DNA from: Candidatus Delongbacteria bacterium
GTDB taxonomy: Bacteria > CAIWAD01 > BS150m-G50
DNA length: 39,361 nucleotides
NCBI GenBank assembly: GCA_016784425.1
Contig: JADHUQ010000002.1
Span: forward strand, 1-39,361
Reading direction: 5' to 3'
In this document: positions 1,284 to 29,867 of the stretch, in pieces
How positions within the stretch are numbered: the stretch's first letter is position 1
Layout: each line of letters begins with the position of its first letter
Made by a program: the position numbers and the translations under genes
The notes under the pieces: model-generated
What the model was told of the DNA's origin: nothing
The model's input: only the letters and a program-made list of their open reading frames with translations
The model's database searches: none

Positions 1284-3092
1284 TTGATTACGAGATACTG
1301 GGCGGCGATTGAGGTGAAACCGTTACGACTCTCTCTCGGTTTCAAACTCTTTGCGGTAAGTACCCTGATAGTACTGCTGACCGGTGCCAGCATCGGTGTC
1401 ATCAGTATGCTGGAGGCGAGGCAGACAATCGAACAGGAAGCGAGTCGACAGCTGATGGGGGTGGCTCTGGAACGACGCGCCCGCCTCGAGTTGTGGCTGA
1501 GTGAACGAATGCGGGCCGCCTCACTGGAGTCTGTCCCTGAGATCCGGCTGGTGATCGAGAGTTGCGAAATTCATCCTCAGCAATGCCCCGGCATTCTGCA
1601 ACCGTTGAACTCGCTCCTGGAGCAGAAGATGGAGCTTGACAGCACCATGCTCTTCGCCGCAGTTTTCGACCAGGAGTTGAACCTGCTCGCCTGCGCCGGT
1701 TCCGGTGTGGATGTTACCGCCGCGGTCAGCCTGCCGGAAGTACTCAGCGCCCTCAAAGGGAAAGGATCCTATGGGCGTCTGCAATTGAACGATGACCAGA
1801 TCGCCGCGCTGAATCTGGCGGTCCCCTTTTCACTCCCCTACGGAACCAACGGTATCCTCCTGCAGCAGTACAGCAGCGCCACCACGATCAATCCGGTCCT
1901 GGCCGATATTGCCGATCTTGGACAGCGGGGTGAGGCGTACCTGGTCGATGCTGATACCGTCATGCTGACCCCCTCCCGTTTTCATCATCATCCGGAACCG
2001 TTGACCCACAAGATGCCGTTGCCACCGGTATTGGAGGCATTACAGGGGAAGAGCGGTGTTATGGTTTATGCCGGCTTTCTCGGTGGAAAAGTGATGGGTG
2101 CCTACAACTGGTTACCGGAAATCAACGGGGCCATCATCGTGGAGATGGATATCGAAGAGGTATTCGCACCCTTGCGGGGAATCCTGGTCGACACCCTGCT
2201 GGCGGCCACGGTCGCCCTGGCAGTGATGCTCTCCATCGTCCTGTTGCTGGCCCGCAACTGGAGCAGACCGCTGGGCGCTCTGGTCACCGCCAGTAATCAG
2301 GTCGGCAGGGGAGACCTCACCGTACGGGTAGCAGAAGAGAGCCGGGGTGATGAAATCGGCAGCCTGTTGGTCAATTTCAACCTCATGGTCAAAGGTCTGG
2401 AGGATTCCCGCCGCCAGCTGGTACAGGCGGAAAAGATGGCCGCCATCGGGCAACTGGTTGCCGGTATCGTACACGAAATGCGTAATCCCCTCTCCTCTAT
2501 CAAAATGAATGTCAGGTTGCTGCAACGGCGGCTGCAGGAGATGTCAACGGTCAGGGAGAGCCTCGAGATTGCCTCCGGGGAGGTGGAACGGCTGGAAAGA
2601 ATGCTGGCTGAACTGCTGGATTACAGTAAGCCGCCGACATTCAAACCTGAAACCTTTGCACCCGGAATTCTGTTGGAACGGGTACGCCGGGCAGTGACGG
2701 AACCGGCCGCAGCAAACGAGATCGAGCTCACCTGCACCAGCGCACCGGAAATCGCCACCCTCTACGGAGATCTTGAGCTGATGGAAAGGGCGGTAGTAAA
2801 CCTGTTACTCAATGCTATTCAAGCCTGCGATAAGAAGGGCAGGGTGGAGCTGCGGATCGAGGAGGCAGCCGGTGGCACGCTTCTGCAGGTCAGTGATCGC
2901 GGCCGGGGTATGAATACCCATGTGCTGGAACGGTTGTTTGACCCCTTCTTTACCACTCGTCCGGACGGGATCGGTCTGGGGATGGCTTCCGTCAGGAAAA
3001 TTGTTGAGACTCATGACGGACAACTCCAGGTTGAAAGCCTGGTTGACCAGGGTACAACAGTGAGAATAATTCTGCCGGGAGGAAACAGCTGA
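1284..3092 (+). CDS. Sensor histidine kinase (TM, about 260-aa periplasmic Cache-like domain, TM, HAMP, HisKA, HATPase_c)
   Basis: Two hydrophobic segments (about aa 20-44 and 300-325) bracket an extracytoplasmic domain. H-box VAGIVHEMRNPLSSI, N-box NLLLNAIQA, G1 DRGRGM and G2 GIGLGMA are present. The start is uncertain: TTG at 1284 or in-frame GTG at 1314. The stop overlaps the start of the downstream regulator (ATGA at 3089-3092). Confidence 0.9.
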   Translation: MITRYWAAIEVKPLRLSLGFKLFAVSTLIVLLTGASIGVISMLEARQTIEQEASRQLMGVALERRARLELWLSERMRAASLESVPEIRLVIESCEIHPQQCPGILQPLNSLLEQKMELDSTMLFAAVFDQELNLLACAGSGVDVTAAVSLPEVLSALKGKGSYGRLQLNDDQIAALNLAVPFSLPYGTNGILLQQYSSATTINPVLADIADLGQRGEAYLVDADTVMLTPSRFHHHPEPLTHKMPLPPVLEALQGKSGVMVYAGFLGGKVMGAYNWLPEINGAIIVEMDIEEVFAPLRGILVDTLLAATVALAVMLSIVLLLARNWSRPLGALVTASNQVGRGDLTVRVAEESRGDEIGSLLVNFNLMVKGLEDSRRQLVQAEKMAAIGQLVAGIVHEMRNPLSSIKMNVRLLQRRLQEMSTVRESLEIASGEVERLERMLAELLDYSKPPTFKPETFAPGILLERVRRAVTEPAAANEIELTCTSAPEIATLYGDLELMERAVVNLLLNAIQACDKKGRVELRIEEAAGGTLLQVSDRGRGMNTHVLERLFDPFFTTRPDGIGLGMASVRKIVETHDGQLQVESLVDQGTTVRIILPGGNS

Positions 3093-4432
3093 TGGCCCGT
3101 ATTCTGGTGATTGACGATGATAAAGCCGCCTGCAGAACGTTGGAGTTGTTTTTCCAGGAGGCGGGGCACGAAGTGTTGACCGCCGGTACAGCCGCCTCTG
3201 GTATGGAGACTTGGCGGAAATCCAACCCCAGTGTTGTCCTGCTGGACCTGATGCTACCGGACGGTTACGGTCTGGACCTGCTTACGGAAGCCAGTCAGCA
3301 GGGTTTACCCGGTGTGGTGATCATGATTACCGGACACCAGGATCTGGATCTGACAATCCAGGGAATGCGTAGCGGTGCCTGGGACTATATTCACAAACCG
3401 CTCAACATTGATGAGTTGGAACAGGCGGTGATGAGTGCGCTGGCGTTGGAGAACAACACGGAGAATCCCGCTCTGGTAGTGGACCTGCTGGCCGAGATCC
3501 ATCCGGAGAAGATTGTCGGTTGCAGCCGGGCGCTGGTCGAAATCCATAAAAAGATCGGTCTGACCAGCCGGGGGCAGGCCAATGTCCTGATCACCGGTGA
3601 TTCCGGGACCGGTAAGGAACTGGTCGCCCGTGCCATTCACCGCTACACCTGTCCCCTGGAGCCGCTGGTGGCGGTAAACTGCAGCGCTTTTGTCCCCACC
3701 CTGCTGGAGAGTGAACTGTTCGGACATGAAAAAGGCGCCTTTACCGGGGCTGACCGTAAAAAGCAGGGTCGCTTTGAACTGGCGGGCAGCGGGACACTTT
3801 TCCTGGACGAAATCGGCGACCTGGATCACGCCCTGCAGGTCAAGTTGCTGCGGGTACTCCAGGAAAAAGTTTTCGAGCGGGTGGGCGGCACCGAGGAGGT
3901 AGAATTCAAAGCCCGGGTGATCGCCGCCACCAACCGTGACCTGGAGTCGCTGGTTGCCGCCGGCAGTTTTCGGGAAGACCTCCTCTTCCGTCTCAAAGTA
4001 ATCGAGATTGATCTCCCCCCCCTGCGGGAGAGACGGGAAGATATTCCACCCCTTACCGAACACCTGCTGCTCAAGATCAACCGCGAGCTGAAGCGGGAGG
4101 TTACCGAGGTTGCGCCGGCTGTTCTGCAACGCCTGCAGAATTATGACTGGCCCGGTAATGTAAGAGAACTGGAGAATCGACTTACCGCCGCGGTCATGCT
4201 TTCAAATGGAAAATCGCTGGATATCGATCTGCCGCAGCCGGAGGGAGCCGCTGAGCCGCCTCCCTCGAGTTCGTCAGACTGGCAGAGTTCGCTGGCACAG
4301 GTGGAAAGTCGGCATATCGCCGGTGTACTGAAAGCTTGTGGCTGGAATCTGGGTAAGACCTGTGATATTCTCGGTATCACCCGTCCGACTTTGCGTCGAA
4401 AAATTGAGGAGTACTCCCTCACCCGGGATTGA
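3092..4432 (+). CDS. Sigma54-dependent response regulator (REC + AAA+ sigma54-interaction domain + Fis-type HTH), NtrC/ZraR family
   Basis: REC domain with LLDLMLPD. Walker A GDSGTGKE. Intact GAFTGA loop (EKGAFTGA). Walker [18 protein letters not shown] and a C-terminal HTH_8 ([15 protein letters not shown]) are present. Translationally coupled to the kinase. Confidence 0.95.
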
Positions 4433-4450
4433 AAATAACAAACATCACAG

Positions 4451-4467
4451 TGAATGATTCTTTCAAT
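4451..4467 (-). promoter_or_regulatory. Candidate enhancer (UAS) site 1, ATTGAAAGAATCATTCA on the minus strand, embedded in the inverted repeat GTGAAT-N10-ATTCAC (4450-4471)
   Basis: Centred about 90 bp upstream of the -24 GG at 4549. It shares 15/17 nt with the site at 13507-13523 and the exact 8-mer ATTGAAAG with the site at 6799-6815. Confidence 0.4.
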
Positions 4468-4547
4468 TCACCCCAACGGTATTTAACCGGGGAGAATATA
4501 CTGGTTGTAACACAAGAACATACAGCAACTTAAGATTGAGAGATTTT

Positions 4548-4563
4548 AGGCACGCCCTTTGCT
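4548..4563 (+). promoter_or_regulatory. Sigma54 (-24/-12) promoter P1: AGGCAC-GCCCT-TTGCT
   Basis: GG at 4549-4550 and GC at 4561-4562 give exact GG-N10-GC spacing. It matches the TGGCAC-N5-TTGCW consensus at all but the first base. It lies about 80 nt upstream of the DUF2892 start and directly downstream of the bEBP gene. Confidence 0.7.
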
Positions 4564-4643
4564 TTGACAGGGGTAGTTACAGGTAGACCGGACAGTCTTA
4601 AACAGCCGGTCCGGCACACCCTTGAATCGCAAAGGAGATCCAA

Positions 4644-4862
4644 ATGAAACGAAATGTAGGCAATGGAGATCGCTATTTCAGGGTAGCAGTAGGAATTATT
4701 GTTATCGCGGTCGGCCTTTATTGGGAAACCTGGTGGGGCGCAATCGGGCTCCTGCCACTGTTAACAGGCGCTATGGGCTGGTGCCCGGCGTATTTGCCGT
4801 TAGGATTATCCAGCCGTAAAGGCGATCATTTAACAGAAGCATCCACTGAAGGCAATAAATGA
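4644..4862 (+). CDS. DUF2892 (YgaP-like) small inner-membrane protein
   Basis: AAAGGAG lies upstream of the ATG. The 72-aa product has the family pattern DRxFRxxxG...two TM helices...GWCPAY. It is the first gene after sigma54 promoter P1. Confidence 0.8.
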   Translation: MKRNVGNGDRYFRVAVGIIVIAVGLYWETWWGAIGLLPLLTGAMGWCPAYLPLGLSSRKGDHLTEASTEGNK

Positions 4863-5107
4863 TCCGTTTGGTTTAAATGGGGCAGGGGTAGCAGACTGGA
4901 ACGGAGACTGAACGGAATAACAGCATGGATGCAAGAAGCACCATTGGTCTGGTTCGTTTATAACCTGTTCCAGCATGACTCATAAAACCTGCTCATGCGA
5001 CCGCCAATCGCCAGGATGTGCCTTATTGAAAACAGTAAAAGCAGATAGAAATGACTTAGCAGAAGAACCGTGATCAAACACAACCTAAAAAATGATGGAG
5101 GATTCAA

Positions 5108-5689
5108 ATGAAGATGAAACTACTCACCCCCCGCCTGACCGGATTAGCCCTGGCAGCCATGATGTTGTTCAGTTTTCAGGCTGTCAGCTTTGCTGGTGCC
5201 GGATGTGGCAAGACCTGCGGCAGCACCTGTGGCAGTGCGAAAGTCGGCGCTGATCTTGGTGTTGGTTGCAGTGGTCATGCTACGGCGACCGCAACGACTG
5301 ATGGAGCTACAACTGAGAAGAAAGCTGCCTGCCCCCATGCTGGAGCCGGTCATGCTGTTGGTGCCGGTGCTGCGGGTAACCCCCATGCCGCTATGGCGAT
5401 GGAAGCTCTGAATTATGTCAACACCGCCGAGAAGCTCTACACCTGCCCGATGCATGCTGAAGTAGTAACAGCGGATGGTGATAAGCTCTGTCCCTCCTGC
5501 AACATGGAGTTACGCCCGATGAGCGCCAAGGAGATGAAGAAATTGCGTGCTTCCGAGCCCAAAGGTTGTCCGATGTGCGCCCTGGTTCTGCCTGGTGACG
5601 CTGAGCAGACAACCTGTCCCACCTGCGAAATGAAGCTGATGCCGGTGCCCCCGATGCCCCAGACTGGTCGCACACCCGCAGGAATGTAG
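5108..5689 (+). CDS. Secreted Cys/His/Met-rich metal-binding protein with two HMBD-type modules (paralog 1)
   Basis: GGAGGA RBS. Signal peptide MKMKLLTPRLTGLALAAMMLFSFQAVSFA. CGKTCGSTCGS and GCSGHA motifs, plus a His/Ala-rich stretch. Module 1 is LYTCPMHAEVV...CPSCNMEL and module 2 is GCPMC...CPTCEMKL, both of the heavy-metal-binding-domain pattern YxCPMHP...CPxCxMxL. Confidence 0.8.
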   Translation: MKMKLLTPRLTGLALAAMMLFSFQAVSFAGAGCGKTCGSTCGSAKVGADLGVGCSGHATATATTDGATTEKKAACPHAGAGHAVGAGAAGNPHAAMAMEALNYVNTAEKLYTCPMHAEVVTADGDKLCPSCNMELRPMSAKEMKKLRASEPKGCPMCALVLPGDAEQTTCPTCEMKLMPVPPMPQTGRTPAGM

Positions 5690-5692
5690 CAA

Positions 5693-6634
5693 ATGACACT
5701 CAGTGCTCAACGGCTGGCTATGGAGATCGACGATCTGCGTCGCAGTCAGAACGCTGTAATACTGGCCCATTTTTATCAACGGGATGAGATTCAGAATCTC
5801 GCTGACGAAATCGGTGATTCACTGAAGCTGGCCCAGGTAGCAGCAGAAACGACAGCAGATGTGATAATGTTCTGCGGTGTTCGCTTTATGGCGGAAACCG
5901 CTAAAATCCTCAATCAGGATAAAACAGTATTGCTGCCGGATCTGGACGCTGGTTGCTCACTGGTCAACGATTGTCCCGCTGATAAGTTCGCCGCCTTCAA
6001 GGCGGACTATCCGGATCATATCGTTCTCTGTTATGTCAACTCCTCGCCGGAAGTAAAAGCACTGAGCGATATTATTGTTACCAGCGCCAACGCTGAGAAG
6101 ATCGTACGAACTATCCCTCCAGAACAGGGGATCATATTCACACCCGATCGCAACCTGGGCCGTTATCTGATACGCAAAACCGGTCGGGAAATGGTACTCT
6201 GGCAAGCGGACTGTGAGGTACATGTGGCTTTCAGCGAGCAGGAGTTACTCCGTGTCAAACAGGAAAATCCCGGCGTCAAAGTCCTGGCACATCCTGAATG
6301 TATCCAGGAGGTTTTGCAGCATGCTGAAGTGGTTGGATCCACCAGCAAGCTGCTGCAGTATTCTCGTGAAAGTGATGATGCTGCCCTCATTGTTGCCACG
6401 GAACCGGGGATCATTTACCAGATGCAGAAGAGCAATCCAGACCGCAAGTACATCCTGGCTCCAGCCATACTCGATGGACGGGAATGCGCCTGTAATGTCT
6501 GCCCCTACATGAAACTCAACACACTTGAGAAGATACACGCAGCCTTCAAAACCGGTCAGCCGGAAATAACACTGCCGTCAGAACTGATGCGTGAAGCTGC
6601 CCGTCCGATCAAGCGGATGTTGGAACTTTCTTAA
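5693..6634 (+). CDS. nadA: Quinolinate synthase NadA ([4Fe-4S] enzyme of de novo NAD synthesis)
   Basis: 313 aa. AVILAHFYQRDEIQNLAD.IGDSL.L, FCGVRFMAETAKIL, DAGCSL, HPEC and CPYMK are present, covering the conserved NadA blocks and the three cluster Cys positions. The start lies 3 nt after the stop of the HMBD-1 gene. Confidence 0.93.
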   Translation: MTLSAQRLAMEIDDLRRSQNAVILAHFYQRDEIQNLADEIGDSLKLAQVAAETTADVIMFCGVRFMAETAKILNQDKTVLLPDLDAGCSLVNDCPADKFAAFKADYPDHIVLCYVNSSPEVKALSDIIVTSANAEKIVRTIPPEQGIIFTPDRNLGRYLIRKTGREMVLWQADCEVHVAFSEQELLRVKQENPGVKVLAHPECIQEVLQHAEVVGSTSKLLQYSRESDDAALIVATEPGIIYQMQKSNPDRKYILAPAILDGRECACNVCPYMKLNTLEKIHAAFKTGQPEITLPSELMREAARPIKRMLELS

Positions 6635-6798
6635 GAGCTGCCGGGATCCGGCTGGCGTCTGATCACTACCCCCTGCTAGGTGTTCAGATCCACCGGACCC
6701 CGTGCGCTCTTTGTTTTGATGACTGTTACCACCTGAGTTACAGATTCTCAGTTTCTTATTGCGGCAACGACTTTGAAGTTCGATAAGATCAGGGACCG

Positions 6799-6815
6799 AT
6801 TGAAAGTTTCTTGCA
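6799..6815 (+). promoter_or_regulatory. Candidate enhancer (UAS) site 2, ATTGAAAGTTTCTTGCA (part of the near-palindrome ATTGAAAG-TTT-CTTGCAAT)
   Basis: Centred about 117 bp upstream of the -24 GG at 6924. It carries the same 8-mer and overall pattern as sites 1 and 3. Confidence 0.4.
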
Positions 6816-6922
6816 ATTCTACCAGGACACCTCTCCCCAAGTCTGCTCTTTCTGTTTATAACACAGCTTAAAAATCCCACCTAAATACTTAATATAAAAT
6901 TGGTTACATCATTCTATTGTGG

Positions 6923-6938
6923 TGGCACAGCTTTTGCG
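6923..6938 (+). promoter_or_regulatory. Sigma54 (-24/-12) promoter P2: TGGCAC-AGCTT-TTGCG
   Basis: GG at 6924-6925 and GC at 6936-6937 give exact N10 spacing, with a perfect TGGCAC and TTGC. It lies about 45 nt upstream of the outer-membrane factor gene. Confidence 0.75.
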
Positions 6939-6983
6939 TAACCACGCTTTGAGCTCGCAATCGTTGGTAGCGTCTTTTGTCAA

Positions 6984-8303
6984 ATGAGGCTTATGATGGT
7001 TAAGTTTTTGAAAGAAGGTGGTTTTCTCCCCTTTACTACCGGTATCCTGATGCTGGTTGCGGTCAGTCACACCACAGCGCAAATCACCGAATTGGAACCG
7101 CAGCTGCAGGACCATATCAGGGCAGCCTTGACAGATAACCTGGATCTTGACAGCTGGACAGAGCGGGTGACAGCCTCAGAAAAGAGGATTTCACAGGCGG
7201 GTGCCTGGCAGGATCCAATGCTCACGGTCGGTTTGATGAACCTCCCGGTAAATTCGTTTGATTTCAATCAGGAACCGATGACTGGTGCCTGGATCACACT
7301 GTCACAATCGATCCCACTCACTGACCGGTATTCAACCCAGCGGGACATAGCGACTCTCTCGACGGAACGGGTTGAAACAGAGCTTCTGGTGCGCCAATTC
7401 GACATCGCCGGGAGCATCGGTGAAGCCTGGTATGACTGGACTTTTTACAGGGCTGCGGTGGCTACACTCGACTCCACCATCGAGGTACTGGATCAGTTTC
7501 TCCAGATTGCGGGCAGCAAGTATGAGACCGGTTCCGGTTTGCTGCAGGATCTTTTCAAAATTGAGACTGAACAGGCCCGTCTGCTCGACAAGCGTGCGGT
7601 ACTTGCACAGATGGCAAAAACCACCGGTGAAAGAGTGGCAATCCTGCTGGGACGAGATCCGCTGGATGTACCACCAGCGCCCGGTTCAATCCCACAGCAA
7701 TTCACTCCACTGACGGATATCGGTCTGGACAGCCTGCTCATCAAAGACAGTCCCACCCTCGCTTCAACTCGCACCGGCCTGGAGATCACCCGCCGTCAGC
7801 TGGATCTGAAAAAAAGCTTACGCTGGCCCAATCTGAACCTGAATGCCGGGTACGGCTACCGCCAGGATGCAGCTGATGGAATGTCCCGGCCTGATTTTTT
7901 CAGCCTTACGGCCGGTATCTCTATTCCTGTCTTCGGTTCAGCCAAGCAGGGCGCCGCTGTTGAAGAAGCTGCCGCGGTATCACGAGAGCGGCAATCACAA
8001 TTGAACAACCAGCTCCTTCAACTCCGTTTTGCACTCCAGGCCTTACTGGATGAGGATTTACGATTGGATGAACAGATCACAATATACAGTAGCAACCTGC
8101 TACCGTTGGCAACGGCGACAGTGTCGGCTTCCATCTCAACCTATTCCGTGAATAAGACCGACATAGAGGCATTGCTGATGGCGCAGACAGCTCTGTTTAA
8201 TTCGAGACTGGAACTGATAGACCGGCTGCGTGATCGTGCGAAAACCCGGGTGAGAATTGCCGCCCTGGTCGGCAGCAGCGAGCTGATACTTCGCGACGAG
8301 TAG
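6984..8303 (+). CDS. cusC: Outer-membrane efflux factor (TolC/OEP family, CusC/CzcC-like)
   Basis: Signal peptide. Two OEP repeats with long heptad-like helical stretches. It sits as the first gene of an OMF-MFP-RND operon. There is no lipobox Cys, so it is CzcC-like in that respect. ATG at 6993 is an alternative start. Confidence 0.85.
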   Translation: MRLMMVKFLKEGGFLPFTTGILMLVAVSHTTAQITELEPQLQDHIRAALTDNLDLDSWTERVTASEKRISQAGAWQDPMLTVGLMNLPVNSFDFNQEPMTGAWITLSQSIPLTDRYSTQRDIATLSTERVETELLVRQFDIAGSIGEAWYDWTFYRAAVATLDSTIEVLDQFLQIAGSKYETGSGLLQDLFKIETEQARLLDKRAVLAQMAKTTGERVAILLGRDPLDVPPAPGSIPQQFTPLTDIGLDSLLIKDSPTLASTRTGLEITRRQLDLKKSLRWPNLNLNAGYGYRQDAADGMSRPDFFSLTAGISIPVFGSAKQGAAVEEAAAVSRERQSQLNNQLLQLRFALQALLDEDLRLDEQITIYSSNLLPLATATVSASISTYSVNKTDIEALLMAQTALFNSRLELIDRLRDRAKTRVRIAALVGSSELILRDE

Positions 8304-8330
8304 CGCTTTCCTGAGGAGTACAAACCACTT

Positions 8331-8413
8331 ATAGTATTGCTTGCTTCGTTGCTGCAGGCAACGCTTTAGTAATTAATGACCGCTGAGGGGATTAGTTTGT
8401 GAAGCAATACTAT
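8331..8413 (+). repeat. Nested inverted repeats in the 181-bp cusC-cusB spacer (predicted RNA stem-loop structure)
   Basis: The outer arms ATAGTATTGCTT (8331-8342) and AAGCAATACTAT (8402-8413) are perfectly complementary over 12 nt. An inner hairpin is CGTTGC-TGCAG-GCAACG (8347-8363). There is no ORF in the spacer. Confidence 0.4.
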
Positions 8414-8484
8414 GGGCCCGATGCTTTGCTGACCGCGCTTTAAAGGCGATTAATTCTAAGCATCGGTATAACAGAGGTGATAGA

Positions 8485-10218
8485 ATGGATAGAAAGAGAA
8501 TGGGGATTATGACAGCTGCCCTCCTGTCCGGGCTGGTCATACTGTTGTCTGCAGGCTACCTGATTGTCCCCATAACTAATGCTGAGAGTGGAGCTGCCGT
8601 CTACAGTGACCTCCATGTCGACTCCATGCATCCCTGGATTGCTTCTGAGGGACCCGGGAAATGCTCTATCTGCGGGATGAAGCTGAGCCAGGTTCAGGGT
8701 CACCGGCCGGGGACCACCCTGCCGGCTGTCGATAACCTGTATGTCACTCCCTCCAATCCGATGTGGGTCCACGAGGGGCCTGGTGAGCACCCTGAGACTG
8801 GTGAACAGTTGATCCCGATCAAGCAATCACCCTATTATCAAGCGCCGGTGGAGGATCATGCAGAGGATCACGATCAGTCCGGCATGTCAATGCAGGAATC
8901 TCCTGCAGCCGTCTCACACAGCCAGGAGGGGGATGAAGCGCAGCTCTATACCTGTGGCATGCACCCGGATGTAATACAGGATGAACCGGGAACCTGCCCG
9001 ATCTGCAGTATGAATCTGACCCCGATCCGCGGTTCCGGCAGGTCATCCACCACTGGTGAGCGTGAGATTGCCTATTGGGTTGCCCCGATGGATCCCGGTT
9101 TTATTTCGGATACACCCGGCAAGTCGCCGATGGGAATGGATCTCGTCCCGGTCTACGCTGATCAACTGAGCGAGGGGACAGTACAGATCGATCCGGTAAC
9201 CCTGCAGAGCATCGGCGTGAGAACAGAACCTGCAACGATGAGAGATCTGGCCCGATCGATCCGTTCCAATGGGATCGTAAAAGTCGCCGAGGATTCTGAA
9301 TTTAAATTGAATGCCAGAATATCCGGCTGGGTTGAGCGACTGCATGTGTCACGAACCGGTGACCGGGTAGTGGCTGGTCAACCGCTGCTTGACATCTACA
9401 GTCCCCAGCTGGTTTCCGCACAGAAAGATCTTTTGCTCGCAATGCGCAGCGGATCAAGCAGCAGTTCCAGGCTGGTCGCAGCCGTACGCCAGCGTCTGCG
9501 ATTCTGGAATATCTCAGAAGCGCAGATCGACGAACTTGCAGGAACCGGGCAGATCAGGCAGTCGCTGACCCTGACCAGTCCCGGCACCGGTATTGTGCTC
9601 CACAAGAATGTTGTCGAGGGATCGTCAGTCAGCGCGGGAATGGACCTGTTCAGAATTGCCGACCTTGAAACCCTCTGGGTTATCGCCCAGATTTACGAGT
9701 ACGAGGTTCCCTGGATCTCCATCGGGGATAAGGTGGAAATCCGCTCCCCCTATGATCCCGGTCTGACTGTCACAGGTACCTTGTCTTTCATCTATCCAAC
9801 CCTGGATACCAGGTCCAGAACAGTCGAGCTCCGCATCGTTATTCCGAATCCGGACTTGCGCTTCAAACCGGAGATGTATGTTGATGTCACAATCCAGACC
9901 TCCTCGCGGGAGGATGTTGTAGCGGTTCCCAAATCGGCCGTAATCAGGACAGGTGAACGGGACCTTGTCTTCGTACAGAGGGGACAGGGGCGGTTTGAAC
10001 CGGTTGAGGTACATCTTGGCCTGGAAGCCGGTCGCTACTACGAAATCGCCCACGGTCTGCAGGCCGGCGAAGAGGTTGTTGTTTCTGCACAGTTCCTGCT
10101 GGACAGCGAGGCAAAACTGCAGGAAGCTATCCAGCGACGGATTCAGCAAAGAAAACAGCCGGGTAAATCGAACCCCGTCACCACAGAAACATCTCCCGGT
10201 AGTCAGCATCAGCACTGA
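8485..10218 (+). CDS. cusB: RND efflux periplasmic adaptor (CusB family) with an N-terminal extension carrying HMBD modules
   Basis: TM/signal anchor. Modules MHPWIASEGPGKCSICGMKL and YTCGMHPDVIQDEPGTCPICSMNLTPI. Then IAYWVAPMDPGFISDTPGKSPMGMDLVPVY and barrel-sandwich / beta-barrel blocks typical of CusB-type MFPs. Confidence 0.92.
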   Translation: MDRKRMGIMTAALLSGLVILLSAGYLIVPITNAESGAAVYSDLHVDSMHPWIASEGPGKCSICGMKLSQVQGHRPGTTLPAVDNLYVTPSNPMWVHEGPGEHPETGEQLIPIKQSPYYQAPVEDHAEDHDQSGMSMQESPAAVSHSQEGDEAQLYTCGMHPDVIQDEPGTCPICSMNLTPIRGSGRSSTTGEREIAYWVAPMDPGFISDTPGKSPMGMDLVPVYADQLSEGTVQIDPVTLQSIGVRTEPATMRDLARSIRSNGIVKVAEDSEFKLNARISGWVERLHVSRTGDRVVAGQPLLDIYSPQLVSAQKDLLLAMRSGSSSSSRLVAAVRQRLRFWNISEAQIDELAGTGQIRQSLTLTSPGTGIVLHKNVVEGSSVSAGMDLFRIADLETLWVIAQIYEYEVPWISIGDKVEIRSPYDPGLTVTGTLSFIYPTLDTRSRTVELRIVIPNPDLRFKPEMYVDVTIQTSSREDVVAVPKSAVIRTGERDLVFVQRGQGRFEPVEVHLGLEAGRYYEIAHGLQAGEEVVVSAQFLLDSEAKLQEAIQRRIQQRKQPGKSNPVTTETSPGSQHQH

Positions 10219-10312
10219 AACGGAATACGGCTTGAAATACTTATACCCGGATCGCAGCAACGACTGTGTTTATCACAAAGCAGTATCACCGAGATTGCAT
10301 TAGAGGCCGAAC

Positions 10313-13300
10313 ATGAACCTGATCGAACGCATCATCGATGGAAGCATTAAGAATCGGCTTCTGATAATTCTCGTTACCCTGGCTCTCGTGGCGATGGGAA
10401 CCTATTCCCTCCTGACCATACCGGTTGACGCGATTCCCGACCTGTCCGATGTCCAGGTGATCGTAATCGCCGATTACCCCGGCCAGTCCCCCCAGGTTGT
10501 CGAGGACCAGATTATCTACCCCCTGACCACCGCACTGTTATCGGTCCCCTTCGTGAAAGATGTACGGGGCTACAGTTTCTTCAATTTTGGTATGGTGTAT
10601 CTGCTTTTTGAGGATGGCACCGATCTCTACTGGGCCAGGAGCCGGGTGCTGGAATATCTGAACCAGGCCGCCCAGAGAATGCCGGAAGGGGTTACCCCCC
10701 GGCTCGGTCCGGATGCCACCGGCCTGGGCTGGATCTACCAGTATACACTCGAATCGGATAACCACTCACTGCAGGAACTCCGCTCGCTGCAGGACTGGTA
10801 TATGCGGTATGAATTACAGACCGTTCCCGGTGTTGCCGAGGTGGCCAGTCTCGGTGGCTTCGTCAAACAATACCAGGTAGCCGTTGACCCGGATCGTCTG
10901 GCCGCACTGGGGATTCCCCTGCAGAAAGTGAAAATGGCGCTGGCTGCTTCGAATAATGATGTCGGGGGCAGGCTGATTGAGATGGCAGAGACCGAGTATT
11001 TCGTCAGGGGTCTGGGTTACCTGAGTGGAGATACCGACGCTGATATCATTGCCCAGATTGAGAGTATTGCGCTGGGTGTCAATGAGAACGGATTCCCGAT
11101 TCTGCTGAAACAGGTCGCAAATGTTGCAGTGGGTCCCGAGTTACGCCGTGGAATAGCAGAATGGAATGGGGAAGGGGAGACGGTGGGAGGAATTGTGGTC
11201 CTCCGGTTTGGTGAGAACGCCCTGGCGGTGATCAAGCGGGTTCAGGCCAAATTGCACGATCTGGAAACAGGTCTCCCGGAAGGGGTGAGAATTGTTACCG
11301 CTTATGACAGGTCAGATCTCATCTATCGGGCCATCGACACCCTGAAAGAAAAACTGACCGAGGAGATGATTGTCGTTGCTCTGATAATTCTCATCTTCCT
11401 GCTCCATTTCAGGAGTGCCCTGGTACCGATCCTGGCGCTGCCGGCAGGTGTACTGATTTCCTTCATGGTGATGAAGTGGATGGGGATTAACGCCAATATC
11501 ATGTCGTTGGGAGGTATTGCCATTGCGATTGGAGTGATGGTCGATGCCTCAGTAGTCATGGTGGAGAACGCCCACAAACATCTCGAAAGGGACAGTGGCG
11601 ACAAAACCCACGCGCAGATCATCTCTGAAGCCGCCCGGGAGGTTGGACCCGCGCTTTTCTTCAGCCTGTTGATAATAACTGTCAGTTTCTTCCCGGTTTT
11701 CAGTTTACAGGCCCAGGAAGGGAGGCTGTTCAGTCCGCTGGCATTTACCAAAACCTTTGCCATGGGGGCTTCAGCCATTCTGGCGATTACTATTGTACCG
11801 GTGCTCATGGTGATATTTGTGCGTGGCAAAATCATAAACGAGGCTAAAAATCCACTCTCGCGTTTCTTTATCTGGCTTTACCGACCCTTCATCAAAACAG
11901 TTCTTCGCCGACCGCTGCTGGTACTGCTCGGCAGCGTGATCGTTCTGGGGATTACCTACTTCCCTTACAGCAGGTTGGGGAGCGAGTTCATGCCACCGCT
12001 GAACGAAGGTGACCTGCTCTATATGCCGACCACACCACCTGGAATCTCCCCGGAGAAAGCGAGGGAGTTACTGCAACAGACTGATCGTATTATCGCCAGT
12101 TTCCCCGAAGTTGAACATGCCTTCGGCAAGATTGGTCGAGCTGAAACCGCCACCGATCCGGCACCGCTGTCGATGATTGAAACCACCATCATTCTGAAAA
12201 AGGACAGATCAGAATGGCGGGCAGGGGTAGACCTTGATTCCCTGGTAAAAGCGCTGGATGCGGCCATTCAATTTCCCGGTTTGACCAACGCCTGGACGAT
12301 GCCGATCAAGACCCGCATCGATATGCTCTCGACCGGGATCAAGACACCGGTCGGCATCAAGATTATGGGTGATGATCTGGAACAGCTGGCCCGGTTGGGG
12401 GAACAGATTGAAGCTGCGGTCAGTACAGTTGAGGGAGTTACTTCAGCCTATGCTGAACGGGCGATTGGCGGCAAGTATATAGACATCCGGATTAACCGTG
12501 AACAGATCGCCAGGCTGGGCTTGACCGTCGGCGATGTACAGGCTGTTATTATGACTGCTCTGGGAGGGATGAATGTCACCTGGACTGTGGAGGGTCAGGC
12601 GCGCTATCCGGTGAATGTCAGGTATCTGCGTGAACGGAGGGATGACATTTCCGATATATCCCGTATCAGAGTTCCGACCCCCGCCGGTGGGCAGGTCCCG
12701 CTCGGTCAACTGTCCGATATCAGGATTGTCGATGGCCCGCCGATGATAAAAACAGAGAACGCCCGCAAGACAGTCTGGGTCTATGTGGATACGAGGGACA
12801 GCGATATCGGTGGATTTGTGGAGCGGCTGCAGCAGGTTGTCAGGAGCGAGATCGATCTTCCGATCGGTTATTCGATAGTCTGGTCCGGTCAATTCGAATA
12901 CATGGAAAGGGCGAGCAAGCGGCTCAAACTGATCATACCGTTGACCCTGCTTATCATCTTCTTCCTGCTGTATGTCCACTTCGGCAATGTCACGGAGTCG
13001 CTGGTGGTCATGCTCACCCTCCCCTTTGCCATGGTGGGGGGAATCTGGCTGATGTATATCCTCGGTTTCAACTCTTCCGTTGCGGTTGCCGTCGGCTTTA
13101 TTGCCCTGCTCGGTCTGGCTGCGGAAACCGGTGTGGTGATGCTGGTGTATCTGGATGAATCCTTCCAGCGTTACACGGACGAAAATCGGATGCGTTACCG
13201 GTCAGATCTCAGAGGTGCCATCATGGAGGGGGCGGTGGATCGTGTGCGTCCCAAGCTGATGACGGTGGCGACCACCCTGATCGGTCTGTTACCGATCATG

Positions 13301-13483
13301 TTTGGCACATCCACCGGATCCGAGATTATGAAAAGGATTGCCGCGCCAATGGTCGGCGGACTGATCTCCTCCACCATTCTGACCCTCATCATCCTGCCTG
13401 CCGTGTACTATCTGATCAAGAGCAGGAGGGTCAGCCCGGATCCTGCGGTGGTAAAACCCACCAGTCCTGAAGGCGCCCGGTAG
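10313..13483 (+). CDS. cusA: CusA/CzcA-family heavy-metal efflux RND pump, CusA-like (Cu(I)/Ag(I))
   Basis: 1056 aa, with long collinear similarity to E. coli CusA as I remember it (PVDAIPDLSDVQVI, YWARSRVLEYLNQ, GPDATGLGWIYQY, LRSLQDW, RRGIAEWNGEGE, NANIMSLGGIAIA.G.MVDA). The three Met contexts of the CusA metal site are kept: LLYMPTT, PLSMIETT and RIDMLSTGIK. Confidence 0.96.
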   Translation: MNLIERIIDGSIKNRLLIILVTLALVAMGTYSLLTIPVDAIPDLSDVQVIVIADYPGQSPQVVEDQIIYPLTTALLSVPFVKDVRGYSFFNFGMVYLLFEDGTDLYWARSRVLEYLNQAAQRMPEGVTPRLGPDATGLGWIYQYTLESDNHSLQELRSLQDWYMRYELQTVPGVAEVASLGGFVKQYQVAVDPDRLAALGIPLQKVKMALAASNNDVGGRLIEMAETEYFVRGLGYLSGDTDADIIAQIESIALGVNENGFPILLKQVANVAVGPELRRGIAEWNGEGETVGGIVVLRFGENALAVIKRVQAKLHDLETGLPEGVRIVTAYDRSDLIYRAIDTLKEKLTEEMIVVALIILIFLLHFRSALVPILALPAGVLISFMVMKWMGINANIMSLGGIAIAIGVMVDASVVMVENAHKHLERDSGDKTHAQIISEAAREVGPALFFSLLIITVSFFPVFSLQAQEGRLFSPLAFTKTFAMGASAILAITIVPVLMVIFVRGKIINEAKNPLSRFFIWLYRPFIKTVLRRPLLVLLGSVIVLGITYFPYSRLGSEFMPPLNEGDLLYMPTTPPGISPEKARELLQQTDRIIASFPEVEHAFGKIGRAETATDPAPLSMIETTIILKKDRSEWRAGVDLDSLVKALDAAIQFPGLTNAWTMPIKTRIDMLSTGIKTPVGIKIMGDDLEQLARLGEQIEAAVSTVEGVTSAYAERAIGGKYIDIRINREQIARLGLTVGDVQAVIMTALGGMNVTWTVEGQARYPVNVRYLRERRDDISDISRIRVPTPAGGQVPLGQLSDIRIVDGPPMIKTENARKTVWVYVDTRDSDIGGFVERLQQVVRSEIDLPIGYSIVWSGQFEYMERASKRLKLIIPLTLLIIFFLLYVHFGNVTESLVVMLTLPFAMVGGIWLMYILGFNSSVAVAVGFIALLGLAAETGVVMLVYLDESFQRYTDENRMRYRSDLRGAIMEGAVDRVRPKLMTVATTLIGLLPIMFGTSTGSEIMKRIAAPMVGGLISSTILTLIILPAVYYLIKSRRVSPDPAVVKPTSPEGAR

Positions 13484-13506
13484 ATCCGCATCAAACAGCT
13501 CCTGAA

Positions 13507-13523
13507 ATTGAAAGATCCATTCA
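13507..13523 (+). promoter_or_regulatory. Candidate enhancer (UAS) site 3, ATTGAAAGATCCATTCA
   Basis: Centred about 83 bp upstream of the -24 GG at 13598. 15/17 identical to site 1. It overlaps the left arm of the cusA terminator hairpin. Confidence 0.4.
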
Positions 13524-13543
13524 GTACTGGATGGATCTTTTTT
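13511..13543 (+). terminator. Rho-independent terminator after cusA
   Basis: AAAGATCCATTCAGT / ACTGGATGGATCTTT is a near-perfect hairpin of about 10-11 bp, followed directly by TTTTTT (13538-13543). It starts 28 nt after the cusA stop. Confidence 0.65.
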
Positions 13544-13596
13544 ATTACCCAGCTGTCATCTAAATCTAAGATGTTATATATCAATATATTACATAT

Positions 13597-13612
13597 TGGC
13601 ACACTTGTTGCT
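13597..13612 (+). promoter_or_regulatory. Sigma54 (-24/-12) promoter P3: TGGCAC-ACTTG-TTGCT
   Basis: GG at 13598-13599 and GC at 13610-13611 give exact N10 spacing and a perfect consensus core. An IHF-like match, TATCAATATATTA (WATCAA-N4-TTR), lies at 13579-13591 just upstream. Confidence 0.75.
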
Positions 13613-13700
13613 GATAATCATTATCAAATAGAGATTTTCAGCGATGACTGAACTGAGAACAGTTTGAACTTAACACCAAATGAAGATAAGGGAGAAAAAA

Positions 13701-14222
13701 ATGTTTAGTAGAATCAGTAGAACATTGGGCTTTATGATGGTAGTAGCTTTAGCTGGTGCGCCACTGTTGGTGAATAGTGCAGTAGCCTGTGATGGTTGTA
13801 CGGGACACGCAAAAGTAGCAGTGCCCGACCAGGGTGAGCAGTACGGCACCATGAAGGCCAGCCAGGTTTCCTCAAGCCATGACGGCCATCAGGAAGCTCA
13901 TGGCATGATGGAGGCAATGGAACACGCCAAAGGAACCAGCCTGGGAATGATCATGACGGCTGAGCATCTGTACAGCTGTCCGATGCACCCGGAAGTCGTT
14001 GCCGTCGACGCAGAAACCACCTGTCCCCTCTGTAACATGAACCTAACCCCGATGAGTCAGGATGATGTTGTCAAATTGCGCAGCTCCCATCCTGAGGCTT
14101 GCCCGATGGATCCAATCGTGGTCGCAGGAAACAGCGACGTAGAAACCTGTCCGATCTGCAAGATGGATCTTACAGAGATTCAGCTGCCAGATATGGAAAG
14201 TGGACATGTGCATCGCCAGTAG
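13701..14222 (+). CDS. Secreted Cys/His/Met-rich metal-binding protein with two HMBD-type modules (paralog 2)
   Basis: AGGGAG lies 7-8 nt before the ATG at 13701. The track ORF begins at 13680 in the same frame. Signal peptide MFSRISRTLGFMMVVALAGAPLLVNSAVA. ACDGCTGHA and an HDGHQEAHGMMEAMEH stretch. Modules LYSCPMHPEVV...CPLCNMNL and ACPMDP...CPICKMDL. Same architecture as 5108-5689. Confidence 0.8.
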   Translation: MFSRISRTLGFMMVVALAGAPLLVNSAVACDGCTGHAKVAVPDQGEQYGTMKASQVSSSHDGHQEAHGMMEAMEHAKGTSLGMIMTAEHLYSCPMHPEVVAVDAETTCPLCNMNLTPMSQDDVVKLRSSHPEACPMDPIVVAGNSDVETCPICKMDLTEIQLPDMESGHVHRQ

Positions 14223-14723
14223 GCTGCTGTCGGTTGACAATAGCGATATTGTTGATAACAGGCTATAAAGGCTTTCAAAAAGGACAGATTGCTCTTTGCT
14301 TGAAGGAGAGGATAGTGAGGGCAGACGATCGGCCAGTGTCACCTGATACTGGCTGATCTCTTTTAGGTCAGCTTCGATTACCTCCGGACTGTTCAAGCAG
14401 GAGCTGCCAGCTTCGGGGAGAAAGGGGGCTGTTCGGTTAAGATAATTGTGTCATACCATATTGAATCAGCGTTTCACAGAAGTGTGCCCGGCAATAATCG
14501 GGGAAAACCGGGTTCGGAAAAACAGTGCTGCTTGCACAACGCCTGCCTGTAAGCTACTTTGCACCTGAGCTCTCTTCGTTGTTGTTTCCGGGTCACAAAG
14601 GAATTCTGCTCCGAAGGGCCAGGCTCAATAGTTTTACCTGAAAGCATTCCGGGATTCCTCGGAAAGATCAGCTGCCACGATGCTGCGCAAACTCTGCACA
14701 GACTAACAGGAAAGCCGGATGAT

Positions 14724-16202
14724 ATGAATCTGATGTTGATCATTCATATAATCGAGAGTCTGCTGATCATCTATTTCTCACTGTATCTGCTGATAGAGCT
14801 GGCGATGATCGTGATATTCTTCTTTGTCTGGCGTTCATCATCAGATACTACTGTGCAGTTGGATAAATCTGCCGTAAGCGGGCAGGGGATAACTATCATC
14901 GTCCCGGCTTACAATGAGGAAATGACCATTGTCGATGTGGTAGAGATGCTGGGGGAGTCGGATTATCCTGAATATGAAATCATTGTTGTAACTGACGGTT
15001 GTACCGATGCTACCCTGCAAAAACTGCAGGACCGTTATGCGTTGCAGGATGTTGCCCGGGAATTTGTTGATGATATTGGCACCTCAGGTGTAAACCAGCT
15101 CTACACCAGCCCGGTGAATTCACGTCTGACGGTAATTGACAAACCCAATGGGGGTAAAGCCGACGCACTCAATGTCGGCTTGAGTTTTGCCAGTCATCCC
15201 TACGCCTGTACAATTGATGCCGATTCTATTCTCGATCCCCAGGCGTTGCGGCAGGTAGCTGCACCGTTTCTGGCAGCTGACGGCGAAAGTGTGGTGATGG
15301 TCGGCGGGGCGCTGGCCGTTGCCAACCGGACCAGGCTGGTAGGGAATCGCCTGACAGGAGGTGAGTTTCCCCGTAATCCCTGGGTCGTCTTTCAGGTCAT
15401 CGAGTACCTGCGCTCGTTCCTGGTCAGTCGAACCGGTCTCGCCAGGATACGCGCACTGCTTATTCTATCGGGCGCTTTTACGCTGTTCCGACGCGAAAGC
15501 CTGCTGGCAGCAGGTGGTTTTCTCTCACTGCACAACCATCACCCCTACATCAAAGAGCTGGGACTTGACGGACGGCACACTGTCTGTGAGGATATGGAGG
15601 TTGTGGTCAGGTTGCGCAGATATCTGAAAGAACAGGGAAAGCCCTCCCGGACCGTATTTCTGCCCCGTCCGATCTGCTGGACAGAAGTTCCGGACAATGC
15701 CGCAAATCTTTCGCTGCAACGCAATCGCTGGCATCGGGGACTGCTGGAGACAATTTACTTTCACCGGAAACTGATTCTGGAGCCATTCTATGGTTCTCTC
15801 GGACTCATCGCCCTGCCATATTACCTGATCTTTGAGGCTATATCACCGATCATAAAATTGCTGGCGCTCCTTTTCGTCGGCGGATTGCTGGCCTGGGGAT
15901 TGGTAAACCGGATGGCGATGATTCTGCTGCTGCTGTCGGTCAACATCACCACAGTAATCTTCATCGGGATTATTACAGTTGTGGTTGAGAGCTGGGGGAG
16001 CAAACACTCACCGGTGAATGTTGCCGCACTCAGGTACCGCAATCATCCGGACTGGCTGGCGCTCCTGGGGATGTCAATACTGGGTGATTTCACCTTTGCC
16101 CATATCCGTATGTTCTGGCAACTAGGGGGAATCAGTGGTTTTCTGAAGGGTAGAAAATCGTGGGATAAATTTGAAAGGAAAGGATTTCATGAAGCTGCGT
16201 AG
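14724..16202 (+). CDS. Processive family-2 glycosyltransferase, PgaC/IcaA-like exopolysaccharide synthase
   Basis: N-terminal TM helix. IIVPAYNEE, VVTDGCTDAT, NGGKADALN, TIDADS (DxD), LSGAFTLFRR, CEDMEVVVRL and QRNRWHRG (QxxRW) are present. Several C-terminal TM helices follow. The track ORF start at 14559 adds 55 non-hydrophobic residues with no support, so I prefer the ATG at 14724. Confidence 0.9.
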   Translation: MNLMLIIHIIESLLIIYFSLYLLIELAMIVIFFFVWRSSSDTTVQLDKSAVSGQGITIIVPAYNEEMTIVDVVEMLGESDYPEYEIIVVTDGCTDATLQKLQDRYALQDVAREFVDDIGTSGVNQLYTSPVNSRLTVIDKPNGGKADALNVGLSFASHPYACTIDADSILDPQALRQVAAPFLAADGESVVMVGGALAVANRTRLVGNRLTGGEFPRNPWVVFQVIEYLRSFLVSRTGLARIRALLILSGAFTLFRRESLLAAGGFLSLHNHHPYIKELGLDGRHTVCEDMEVVVRLRRYLKEQGKPSRTVFLPRPICWTEVPDNAANLSLQRNRWHRGLLETIYFHRKLILEPFYGSLGLIALPYYLIFEAISPIIKLLALLFVGGLLAWGLVNRMAMILLLLSVNITTVIFIGIITVVVESWGSKHSPVNVAALRYRNHPDWLALLGMSILGDFTFAHIRMFWQLGGISGFLKGRKSWDKFERKGFHEAA

Positions 16203-22045: not shown

Positions 22046-22052
22046 GTTTATC

Positions 22053-23924: not shown

Positions 23925-24288
23925 CATGATCGCTTCAGCAGCAATATCTCATCCAAAGACAACTCCTCCTGTTGCAGTCTATGCTGTGAATGGGGTCCTC
24001 ACTATCCTGCTCGTTCCACGCCATTGCTTCGGTTCAGGGAGGACCCATCTGGTACGTTGCTAACGACAGCGAACTTGGTAATACTATAGTATTCCCCAGT
24101 TAAGCTGACCGTTTGAGTTAGTGCATTTCGGGAAATACTGTTTAAATGATGCCGCTGTCTCCATAATAAAGCGGACATTTCAGGTGAGCATCGCTATATA
24201 TACGGATAGTTCCTTTTTGTTTGCGACAGCTCCCTTGTACAGAGGGTGTTGGCGCCGGGCAGAGGTAATCAAACTAGGAGGTCTGATC

Positions 24289-24729: not shown

Positions 24730-24878
24730 TCTGAGAATTGCCCGGCATCGCTTCCAGTTGCCGTGATTTCGGCACCATCTATGAAGGAAACAGTAACCGT
24801 GCGATACTCGCACCAGATCTATTTAGTTGCACATACGCGGTTGTCAACCCCGACAGCCCGATAATATCAGGAGTTTTT

Positions 24879-27861: not shown

Positions 27862-27893
27862 TGTGTTTATCCTGCAACGAAAATAGGCTGATT

Positions 27894-29866: not shown

Positions 29867-29867
29867 C

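Follow-up and report, generated by a model that had tools for sequence, protein, structure and literature searches.

How is a Cus-type copper/silver efflux pump controlled when the two-component system beside it carries an NtrC-type regulator? The question is raised by a stretch of DNA from Candidatus Delongbacteria bacterium (assembly GCA_016784425.1, contig JADHUQ010000002.1, positions 1 to 39,361, forward strand), which was analysed over its whole length of 39,361 nucleotides and is called the window below. Here, the genes for a sensor histidine kinase and a response regulator of the bacterial enhancer-binding protein (bEBP) type are followed by genes for a CusCBA-like pump of the resistance-nodulation-division (RND) type, two secreted proteins with a heavy-metal-binding domain (HMBD), a small DUF2892 protein and the quinolinate synthase NadA. 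Textbook control of Cus, Sil and Cop pumps is exerted by OmpR-type regulators at sigma-70 promoters. A first-pass annotation, made from the sequence alone, had instead proposed a single sigma-54 regulon under one bEBP, comprising the pump, both HMBD proteins, DUF2892 and possibly nadA. This proposal is supported here by a shared enhancer, by conserved related loci and by terminators, and the locus is likely to be a copper/silver-responsive, sigma-54-dependent two-component regulon.

Three predicted promoters and a shared enhancer motif

The elements on which this reading is built are three predicted sigma-54 promoters and three palindromes that may serve as upstream activating sequences, or enhancers.

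4548-4563, + strand: sigma-54 promoter P1 (-24/-12), AGGCACGCCCTTTGCT; intergenic, 1 mismatch to TGGCAC-N5-TTGCW
6923-6938, + strand: sigma-54 promoter P2 of the pump operon, TGGCACAGCTTTTGCG; intergenic, 1 mismatch to the same core
13597-13612, + strand: sigma-54 promoter P3, TGGCACACTTGTTGCT; intergenic, perfect core with 0 mismatches
4450-4466, + strand: enhancer 1, GTGAATGATTCTTTCAA; 1 mismatch, centre 90 nt before the -24 element
6800-6816, + strand: enhancer 2, TTGAAAGTTTCTTGCAA; 1 mismatch, centre 115 nt before the -24 element
13508-13524, + strand: enhancer 3, TTGAAAGATCCATTCAG; 1 mismatch, centre 81 nt before the -24 element

The three GG-N10-GC sites lie exactly where the first-pass annotation had placed them, with 0-1 mismatches to TGGCAC-N5-TTGCW, and all are intergenic, on the + strand and upstream of a + strand gene. 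From the end of the site to the following start there are 80 nt at P1 (ATG of the DUF2892 gene at 4644), 45-57 nt at P2 (start of the outer membrane factor, OMF, at 6984, or at 6996 by a second gene call) and 67-89 nt at P3 (start of the second HMBD gene at 13680, or likelier at 13702). No sigma-54 site precedes the kinase gene in the window, and thus no autoregulation is seen.

Could such matches be coincidental, with transcription by sigma-70 or a Bacteroidota-type sigma-A and a two-component system that regulates something else? Taken alone, the core motif exceeds chance only weakly: allowing 1 mismatch, it occurs 4 times in the window (1.66 +/- 1.13 expected), a count reached by 4 of 100 shuffles, and the bare GG-N10-GC pattern shows no enrichment there. 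The coincidental reading can also point to a weak sigma-70-like match that overlaps P3 (13596-13624) and to the fourth core, AGGCACGAAAATTGCT at 31147-31162, which is either a chance match, as is probable, or the target of another bEBP. This fourth core corrects an earlier statement that the other TGGCAC strings in coding sequence are wrongly spaced, which is not fully right, as it has the correct spacing and 1 mismatch. It falls in the 3'-terminal part of an amidohydrolase gene (29802-31178) and about 210 nt ahead of a MutL-like (PF13941) gene, and no TTGAA-N7-TTCAA was found upstream of it; given its coding location and missing partner enhancer, it was dropped as a promoter of the regulon. 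Against coincidence, sigma-70-like matches in the window are at chance level (10 seen, 10.0 expected), and the three promoters do not stand alone.

Ahead of all three lies the palindrome TTGAA-N7-TTCAA, which was spotted when the 260 nt ahead of each site were read alongside the corresponding stretches of related loci. When the two elements are combined into a composite, that is, a palindrome (up to 1 mismatch) followed at 70-130 nt by a GG-N10-GC core (up to 2 mismatches), the window holds three instances, exactly the three promoter sites, and none of 300 dinucleotide-preserving shuffles contains even one. The composite of enhancer and promoter is therefore far beyond chance. Enhancer 1 also has a weaker partner 22 bp upstream (4428-4444), which overlaps the stop codon of the regulator gene.

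Some further features of these regions can be noted. Rfam and tRNA scans found nothing in the window, which leaves no riboswitch explanation for the 5' regions. By eye, TATCAATATATTA at 13570-13590, between enhancer 3 and P3, fits the IHF consensus WATCAANNNNTTR, and the spacers at all three promoters look AT-rich, consistent with DNA bending. Another enhancer-like palindrome, TTGAATCAGCGTTTCAC at 14461-14477 (1 mismatch), lies upstream of a GT2 gene with no -24/-12 core after it, and is probably due to chance.

The enhancer in related loci

As the palindrome was derived from these very regions, its validation lies in its independent presence in other loci. Relatives of the kinase are found at 73-76% identity in marine metagenome contigs and at 28-49% in several phyla. 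The more distant loci that illustrate the range of gene content, with the identity of their kinase to that of the window, are given below (MAG, metagenome-assembled genome; OEP, outer membrane efflux protein).

L006, kinase 49%: OEP-CusB-CusA-HMBD
L007, kinase 44%: CopA-type ATPase, cupredoxin, OEP-CusB-CusA
L008 (Ca. Electryonea), kinase 42%: OEP-CusB-CusA-HMBD
L094 (Latescibacteria MAG), kinase 42%: HMBD, CopA, cupredoxin, OEP-CusB-CusA
L093 (Syntrophobacter-like contig), kinase 31%: CusB-CusA-YHS
L092 (contig from a 7.2-Mb genome), kinase 31%: CopB, multicopper oxidase, RND

The first-pass annotation had asked whether the sites are conserved and whether orthologous kinase/regulator pairs share a neighbourhood. 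Promoter, enhancer and kinase/bEBP arrangement do recur, with the enhancer and a -24/-12 element at matching distances after orthologous pairs whose kinases are 31-76% identical to that of the window. For example, the promoter has the same position relative to the regulator gene in L001, L003, L006 and L007, and -24/-12 elements are present in the equivalent intergenic regions of L001, L003, L006, L007, L008 (two promoters), L094, L093 and L010. The spacing from enhancer to promoter after the regulator gene is 93-95 nt in L001, L003, L006 and L007 and 90 nt in the window; before the OMF gene it is 115 nt in both L008 and the window, and before the HMBD gene 82 nt in L008 and 81 nt in the window. 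Two perfect palindromes stand 22 bp apart in L094, and L093 has three palindromes (two perfect, one with 1 mismatch) with two + strand promoters and one divergent promoter. Across 132 kb (the window and five related loci) there are four perfect palindromes, all of them upstream of predicted sigma-54 promoters. Together with the shuffling result, the retention of promoter and enhancer at matching distances in loci with 31-49% kinase identity makes a coincidental origin of the three sites highly improbable.

In several of these loci, a TTGAA half-site takes in the TGA stop of the regulator gene (4430-4432 in the window, ~3832 in L007, 6080-6096 in L008 and 13143-13159 in L094), so that the first enhancer element overlaps the 3' end of the regulator gene in several lineages.

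The enhancer has its limits. TTGAA-N7-TTCAA is absent from the remote loci L009, L010 and L030, which include a Kiritimatiellales MAG. Sigma-54 cores nevertheless lie upstream of the pump genes in L009 (where cusB is divergently oriented) and in L010, and in L030 a core stands just past the regulator gene, about 2 kb ahead of the pump genes. The palindrome is likewise absent from L092, where divergent sigma-54-like cores (CGGCAC...TTGC) are found ahead of the kinase homologue at 9580-9633 and a further one at 16720-16735, near the CopB and multicopper oxidase genes. This suggests that the L092 branch uses another enhancer, possibly with autoregulation.

The association of the kinase family with copper genes can be assessed separately. 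Its kinase/bEBP pairs adjoin OEP-CusB-CusA, a CopA-type ATPase, a cupredoxin, a multicopper oxidase or CopB in L006-L012, L030 and L092-L094. Of the 11 distinct loci with full-length kinase homology, 10 have copper or heavy-metal efflux genes no more than 10 kb away, compared with about 5 of 75 loci in which only the kinase core matches. The core-only loci came from a scan of a genome collection with a 24-sequence kinase alignment, whose patterns fell in the kinase core; the 80 loci, mostly unrelated kinase/bEBP pairs, served as a negative control. The contrast indicates that the association with copper genes is specific to this sensor family.

The closest relatives differ mainly in cargo. In L001/L002 the pair is followed by the -24/-12 site AGGCACGCAATTTGCT and then by HMBD-nadA; in L003/L004 it is followed by the site TGGCATCCCTTTTGCC, DUF2892, a cusA remnant and HMBD-nadA. 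On the contig of P0002 the order is pair, DUF2892, OEP-CusB-CusA and HMBD-nadA, so that the HMBD-nadA pair is kept in L001-L004 and on the P0002 contig. The remnant in L003/L004 (13711-14010), between DUF2892 and HMBD-nadA, corresponds to the C terminus of cusA, with 71% identity over 100 aa. Judging from these gene orders, the L003/L004 lineage has lost the pump and retained the kinase, regulator, enhancer, promoter and small genes, and L001/L002 have wholly lost both the pump and DUF2892. Base composition gives no compositional sign of a recent horizontal transfer of the pump cassette. A transfer was also considered from an incongruence of closest relatives (the pump is closest to that of L008, the kinase to that of L006) and was set aside, as the incongruence is too mild.

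The pump and its predicted transcription units

The genes and hairpins downstream of the two-component system are as follows (MFP, membrane fusion protein; HME, heavy-metal efflux).

4644..4862, + strand: DUF2892/YgaP-like small membrane protein (YgaP-TM), 72 aa, with a GWCPAY motif (Pfam)
5108..5689, + strand: HMBD1, secreted and Cys/His/Met-rich, with a CPMH...CPxC heavy-metal-binding domain (Pfam)
5693..6634, + strand: nadA, for the [4Fe-4S] enzyme quinolinate synthase (422 bits to NCBIfam NF006878, cut-off 294)
6635..6709, + strand: terminator-like hairpin after nadA, then a U-rich tract (dG -41.2 kcal/mol, z = -5.7, 0 of 200 shuffles as stable)
6984..8303, + strand: OMF of the OEP/TolC family, cusC-like (Pfam/NCBIfam; start 6996 in the second gene call)
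8485..10218, + strand: CusB-like MFP with three N-terminal HMBD repeats (HlyD_D23, HlyD_D4 of CusB type, HMBD x3)
10313..13483, + strand: CusA orthologue, HME-RND (TIGR00914, 1193.8 bits against a cut-off of 701.45)
13510-13541, + strand: cusA terminator hairpin and U run (dG -23.7 kcal/mol, z = -6.0)
13680..14222, + strand: HMBD2, secreted and His/Met/Cys-rich with an HMBD (Pfam; likely start ATG 13702)
14327..14358, + strand: terminator-like hairpin closing the HMBD2 unit (z = -4.0)

Pfam and NCBIfam profile searches bore out all the gene assignments that had been made from the letters. Among solved structures, the RND protein is best matched by E. coli CusA (3K07), at 1205 bits, and the zinc pump ZneA reaches 545 bits, and all three residues of the Cu(I)/Ag(I) triad of CusA (M573/M623/M672) align to Met. 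The adaptor has 201.8 bits to the CusB model NF007303, under its cut-off of 390 bits, and its HMBD repeats are of the CPMH/CxxC type. An OMF is present, and CusF was not found in the locus; the secreted HMBD proteins are probably periplasmic metal chaperones or buffers and may replace it.

Three hairpins, after nadA, cusA and HMBD2, point to three transcription units; the nadA hairpin comes ahead of the second enhancer-promoter pair and the cusA hairpin ahead of the third. The predicted units are DUF2892-HMBD1-nadA from P1, OMF-MFP-CusA from P2 and HMBD2 from P3. No comparable hairpin lies between DUF2892 and HMBD1 (z = -1.05), and HMBD1 is probably co-transcribed from P1. Enhancer 3 sits inside the cusA terminator hairpin (13508-13541), and this DNA appears to double as an RNA terminator and a bEBP binding site. 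A similar inverted-repeat arrangement is seen in L008, 82 nt ahead of the HMBD gene.

The place of nadA had been given as only possible. It can now be put more firmly: nadA starts 3 nt past the end of HMBD1, no terminator separates it from P1, and L001 also has an HMBD-nadA pair. Because HMBD-nadA is the sole cargo behind the conserved promoter of L001, nadA is probably a real member of the regulon in this clade.

The sensor kinase, the regulator and the signal

The two-component system lies at the head of the locus.

1284..3092, + strand: sensor histidine kinase (HAMP, HisKA, HATPase_c in Pfam; the true start is possibly GTG 1314)
3092..4432, + strand: NtrC-family response regulator/bEBP (PF00072 REC, PF00158 sigma-54 AAA+, PF02954 Fis-type HTH_8)

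In the kinase, two transmembrane segments surround a periplasmic domain of ~250 aa, which is called dCache_1 in homologues, and HAMP, HisKA (H-box VHEMRNPL, H397) and HATPase_c follow. The regulator has D52 in its REC domain, Walker A GDSGTGK at 169 and Walker B LFLDEI at 236, and the intact GAFTGA loop on which its description as a sigma-54 activator had been based is indeed present, at residue 215. The named families nearest to the pair are AtoS/ZraS and AtoC/ZraR, with the regulator below the NCBIfam equivalog cut-offs of AtoC, NtrC and ZraR. The sensor-domain family is small, with 15 clusters at E <= 1e-30 and 79 at E <= 1e-10 in an exhaustive HMMER search of 1.84 billion representatives; a word-index search with the sensor domain alone gave one fragment only, and it was the exhaustive search that recovered the family.

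What the kinase senses is less easily read. Its periplasmic domain carries the motif M-x-[TS]-PSR-x3-HP-x4-H-x-M, which does not vary among 24 aligned homologues and was found in 43 that were retrieved. The corresponding residues M227, H236, H242 and M244 would suit a Cu(I)/Ag(I) site and are candidate ligands, though only as a lead.

It may therefore be asked whether the sigma-54 wiring is real and the signal a different one, such as Zn, Cd, Co or general envelope stress, with the pump as one output of envelope protection. The kinship of the pair with ZraSR and AtoSC would fit this, and ZraSR is reportedly now argued to sense envelope stress. A generic dCache fold would fit it too, as would the lack of the His/Met motif in distant homologues with copper genes nearby. 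The cargo speaks for copper and silver: the RND protein keeps the Met triad of CusA and scores twice as high to CusA as to ZneA, the genes beside the pair in related loci are specific to copper (CopA-type HMA ATPase, cupredoxin, multicopper oxidase, CopB), and no ZraP/CpxP-like gene was seen among the window genes scanned. On balance a signal other than copper or silver is rather unlikely.

A model for the regulon

The following model of a copper/silver-responsive regulon is what we infer for the signal, the phosphorelay, the binding of the regulator and the dependence on sigma-54 in vivo. The periplasmic domain of the kinase would sense Cu(I)/Ag(I) or a direct consequence of these ions. The kinase would autophosphorylate at H397 and pass the phosphate to D52 of the regulator, which would oligomerise on the TTGAA-N7-TTCAA enhancers (often paired, 22-23 bp apart) located 81-115 bp upstream of the three -24/-12 promoters. 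The intervening DNA would loop, and the GAFTGA loop, driven by ATP hydrolysis, would open the closed complexes of sigma-54 holoenzyme at P1-P3. The pump made in response would export Cu(I)/Ag(I) from both periplasm and cytoplasm. A sigma-54 promoter stays silent until its activator acts, which would suit a costly tripartite envelope pump.

Several points weigh against this account. The enhancer motif was derived post hoc from the same three regions in which it was counted, although it then turned up independently in other loci. The rpoN gene is not in the 39-kb window. The His/Met motif of the kinase is absent from P0038 and P0089, distant homologues that are linked to copper genes; this weakens the assignment of ligands, and what is sensed could be another metal or stress on the envelope. 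One locus with a full-length kinase homologue, L013, has no copper gene in its flanks. Lastly, nadA is a housekeeping gene, for which dependence on a stress promoter would be odd, and an unrecognised constitutive promoter for it may lie in the 245-nt gap at 4863-5107.

A wider picture can be drawn tentatively, as a possibility that falls short of being probable. It would comprise a cross-phylum family of copper-sensing kinase/bEBP pairs with one enhancer, shuffled cassettes and the recruitment of nadA. As part of this picture, the family would be small, with a single, nearly invariant enhancer TTGAA-N7-TTCAA, and would extend over lineages of the Fibrobacteres-Chlorobi-Bacteroidetes (FCB) group (such as Latescibacteria, Calditrichaeota and Electryonea) and Syntrophobacter-like Deltaproteobacteria, and possibly over Planctomycetes, Verrucomicrobiota and Kiritimatiellales. 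The CusCBA, CopA ATPase, cupredoxin and HMBD cassettes would each bring their own terminator, enhancer and sigma-54 promoter. If this were true, cassettes could be gained, lost and shuffled between genomes and would come at once under the control of the resident regulator, and nadA would have been recruited in this clade to replace a copper-sensitive Fe-S enzyme during metal stress.

The findings may be of use beyond this locus. In a large part of the uncultured FCB group and of neighbouring lineages, copper efflux is probably governed by a sigma-54 switch that is gated by ATP and tightly off at rest. The code TTGAA-N7-TTCAA, placed ~80-115 bp upstream of a -24/-12 element, offers a means of predicting copper regulons in MAGs. 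The presence of nadA in the locus also suggests a connection between copper stress and NAD biosynthesis.

Surroundings of the locus

Taxon assignment points to an FCB-like marine bacterium that bears a type IX secretion system (T9SS). Upstream of the kinase, a glyoxalase/Ble-like gene (982-1312) encodes only 75 aa, compared with 122-123 aa in most relatives, and there is no AIM24 gene, although all close relatives have one ahead of the kinase. The truncated gene and the missing one point to a local deletion. Downstream, between HMBD2 and the CBS, Fer4 and FeoB genes, the stretch 14559-23924 encodes a PgaC-like GT2 protein, Big_7 and TPR proteins, a 1119-aa polysaccharide deacetylase and a 638-aa open reading frame. 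As the CBS/Fer4 genes stand almost directly after nadA in L001 and L003, the pump cassette and this exopolysaccharide cluster seem to occupy a variable region. Beyond this stretch, still downstream of the copper genes, those for CBS and 4Fe-4S ferredoxin proteins (24121-25679, + strand) adjoin genes for FeoB and a 229-aa DtxR-FeoA fusion with the N- and C-terminal domains of an iron-dependent repressor and FeoA (25870-28583, - strand), a neighbourhood that is kept in L001/L002.

Comparison with known systems

How new, then, is this wiring? The E. coli CusRS/cusCFBA system resembles the locus in its CusA with a Met triad, adaptor with CusB-type domains, OMF and adjoining two-component system. 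It differs in its regulator, as CusR is an OmpR-type winged-helix protein acting at a sigma-70 promoter and the regulator of the window is a sigma-54 bEBP. The window kinase reaches only 117.4 bits against the CusS/SilS/CopS model TIGR01386 (cut-off 292.55 bits). Without a winged-helix Trans_reg_C output, and with a kinase that fails this model, the pair was not assigned to the CusRS/CopRS/SilRS type. E. coli also has CusF, in place of which the window has secreted HMBD proteins and HMBD repeats on the adaptor.

ZraSR (HydHG) of E. coli and Salmonella, with its target zraP, is likewise a metal-associated sigma-54 system of NtrC type, whose kinase senses in the periplasm and whose output is a metal-binding protein of that compartment. 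Its theme is Zn/Pb rather than Cu/Ag, and its output is the chaperone ZraP, whereas the window has an RND pump, HMBD proteins, DUF2892 and nadA. Against the ZraS model NF007688 the window kinase scores 188.5 bits (cut-off 479), in a match limited to the kinase core, and against the ZraR model NF007689 the regulator scores 327.5 bits (cut-off 760). With all scores under the equivalog cut-offs, assignment to ZraSR, AtoSC or NtrBC was rejected.

A control of CusCBA pumps by a sigma-54 two-component system was not found described in the literature searched, and HME-RND pumps are not listed in a 2025 survey of sigma-54 regulons across phyla (PMC12316311). A partial precedent is Nla28 of Myxococcus xanthus, a bEBP of NtrC type; some of the sigma-54 promoters that it is confirmed or predicted to control lie ahead of RND and heavy-metal efflux transporter genes (PMC9765219). 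Nla28 is, however, a regulator of starvation and development with a GC-rich tandem-repeat site, and is not a dedicated regulator tied to metal-resistance genes (PMC9765219).

The closest precedent is CorSR of M. xanthus, a characterised copper-responsive two-component system (CorS, MXAN_3419; CorR, MXAN_3418) with a sigma-54 bEBP (Sanchez-Sutil et al. 2013, PMC3707914). Under its control is the curA cluster, which encodes a multicopper oxidase, a CopA ATPase and a cupredoxin-like protein, through several predicted sigma-54 promoters (PMC3707914). The background first given for the window, in which ZraSR was the known sigma-54 metal system and the wiring had not been recognised as described, was therefore incomplete. 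Compared by description, CorSR and the window pair have the same architecture, with a periplasmic sensor and HAMP kinase and a regulator of REC, sigma-54 AAA+ and HTH_8 domains (PMC3707914). The CorSR regulator gene lies inside a copper-resistance cluster and the window pair immediately upstream of one, and both clusters have several predicted sigma-54 promoters. The differences lie in output and control. CorSR acts on genes for a multicopper oxidase, a P1B ATPase, and cupredoxin-like and cytochrome-c-like proteins, and in the window the predicted target is a CusCBA RND pump; CorSR is autoregulated within its operon and the window kinase gene has no preceding sigma-54 site; CorR has no defined enhancer motif and the window has TTGAA-N7-TTCAA. 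Copper induction depends on CorSR in M. xanthus and would depend on the kinase/regulator pair in the window.

These likenesses raise the question of whether the regulon is simply the orthologue of CorSR/curA, a known system in another phylum. In favour of orthology are the common domain architecture, the copper theme that both would share and the multiple sigma-54 promoters per cluster (PMC3707914), as well as the curA-type cargo of L007, L094 and L092 (cupredoxin_1, CopA ATPase, multicopper oxidase). However, no CBA/RND pump is reported under CorSR in M. xanthus, the sensor family is small and its named homologues include no Myxococcota, and the Myxococcota loci that were retrieved match the kinase core only and have no copper neighbours. 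One of these candidates for CorS, L086 (Archangium), was rejected as an unrelated kinase adjoining an M16 peptidase gene. Orthology is thus a serious but doubtful explanation, and a copper/silver-responsive sigma-54 regulon is the reading we prefer.

Given the CorSR precedent, the wiring of the window is a variant with a different target, an RND pump, and not an unprecedented principle. Since CorSR had already established copper-responsive two-component regulation through sigma-54, the advance is incremental rather than conceptual, and what appears to be new here is the CusCBA pump as a target, an enhancer motif shared across phyla and the likely co-transcription of nadA.

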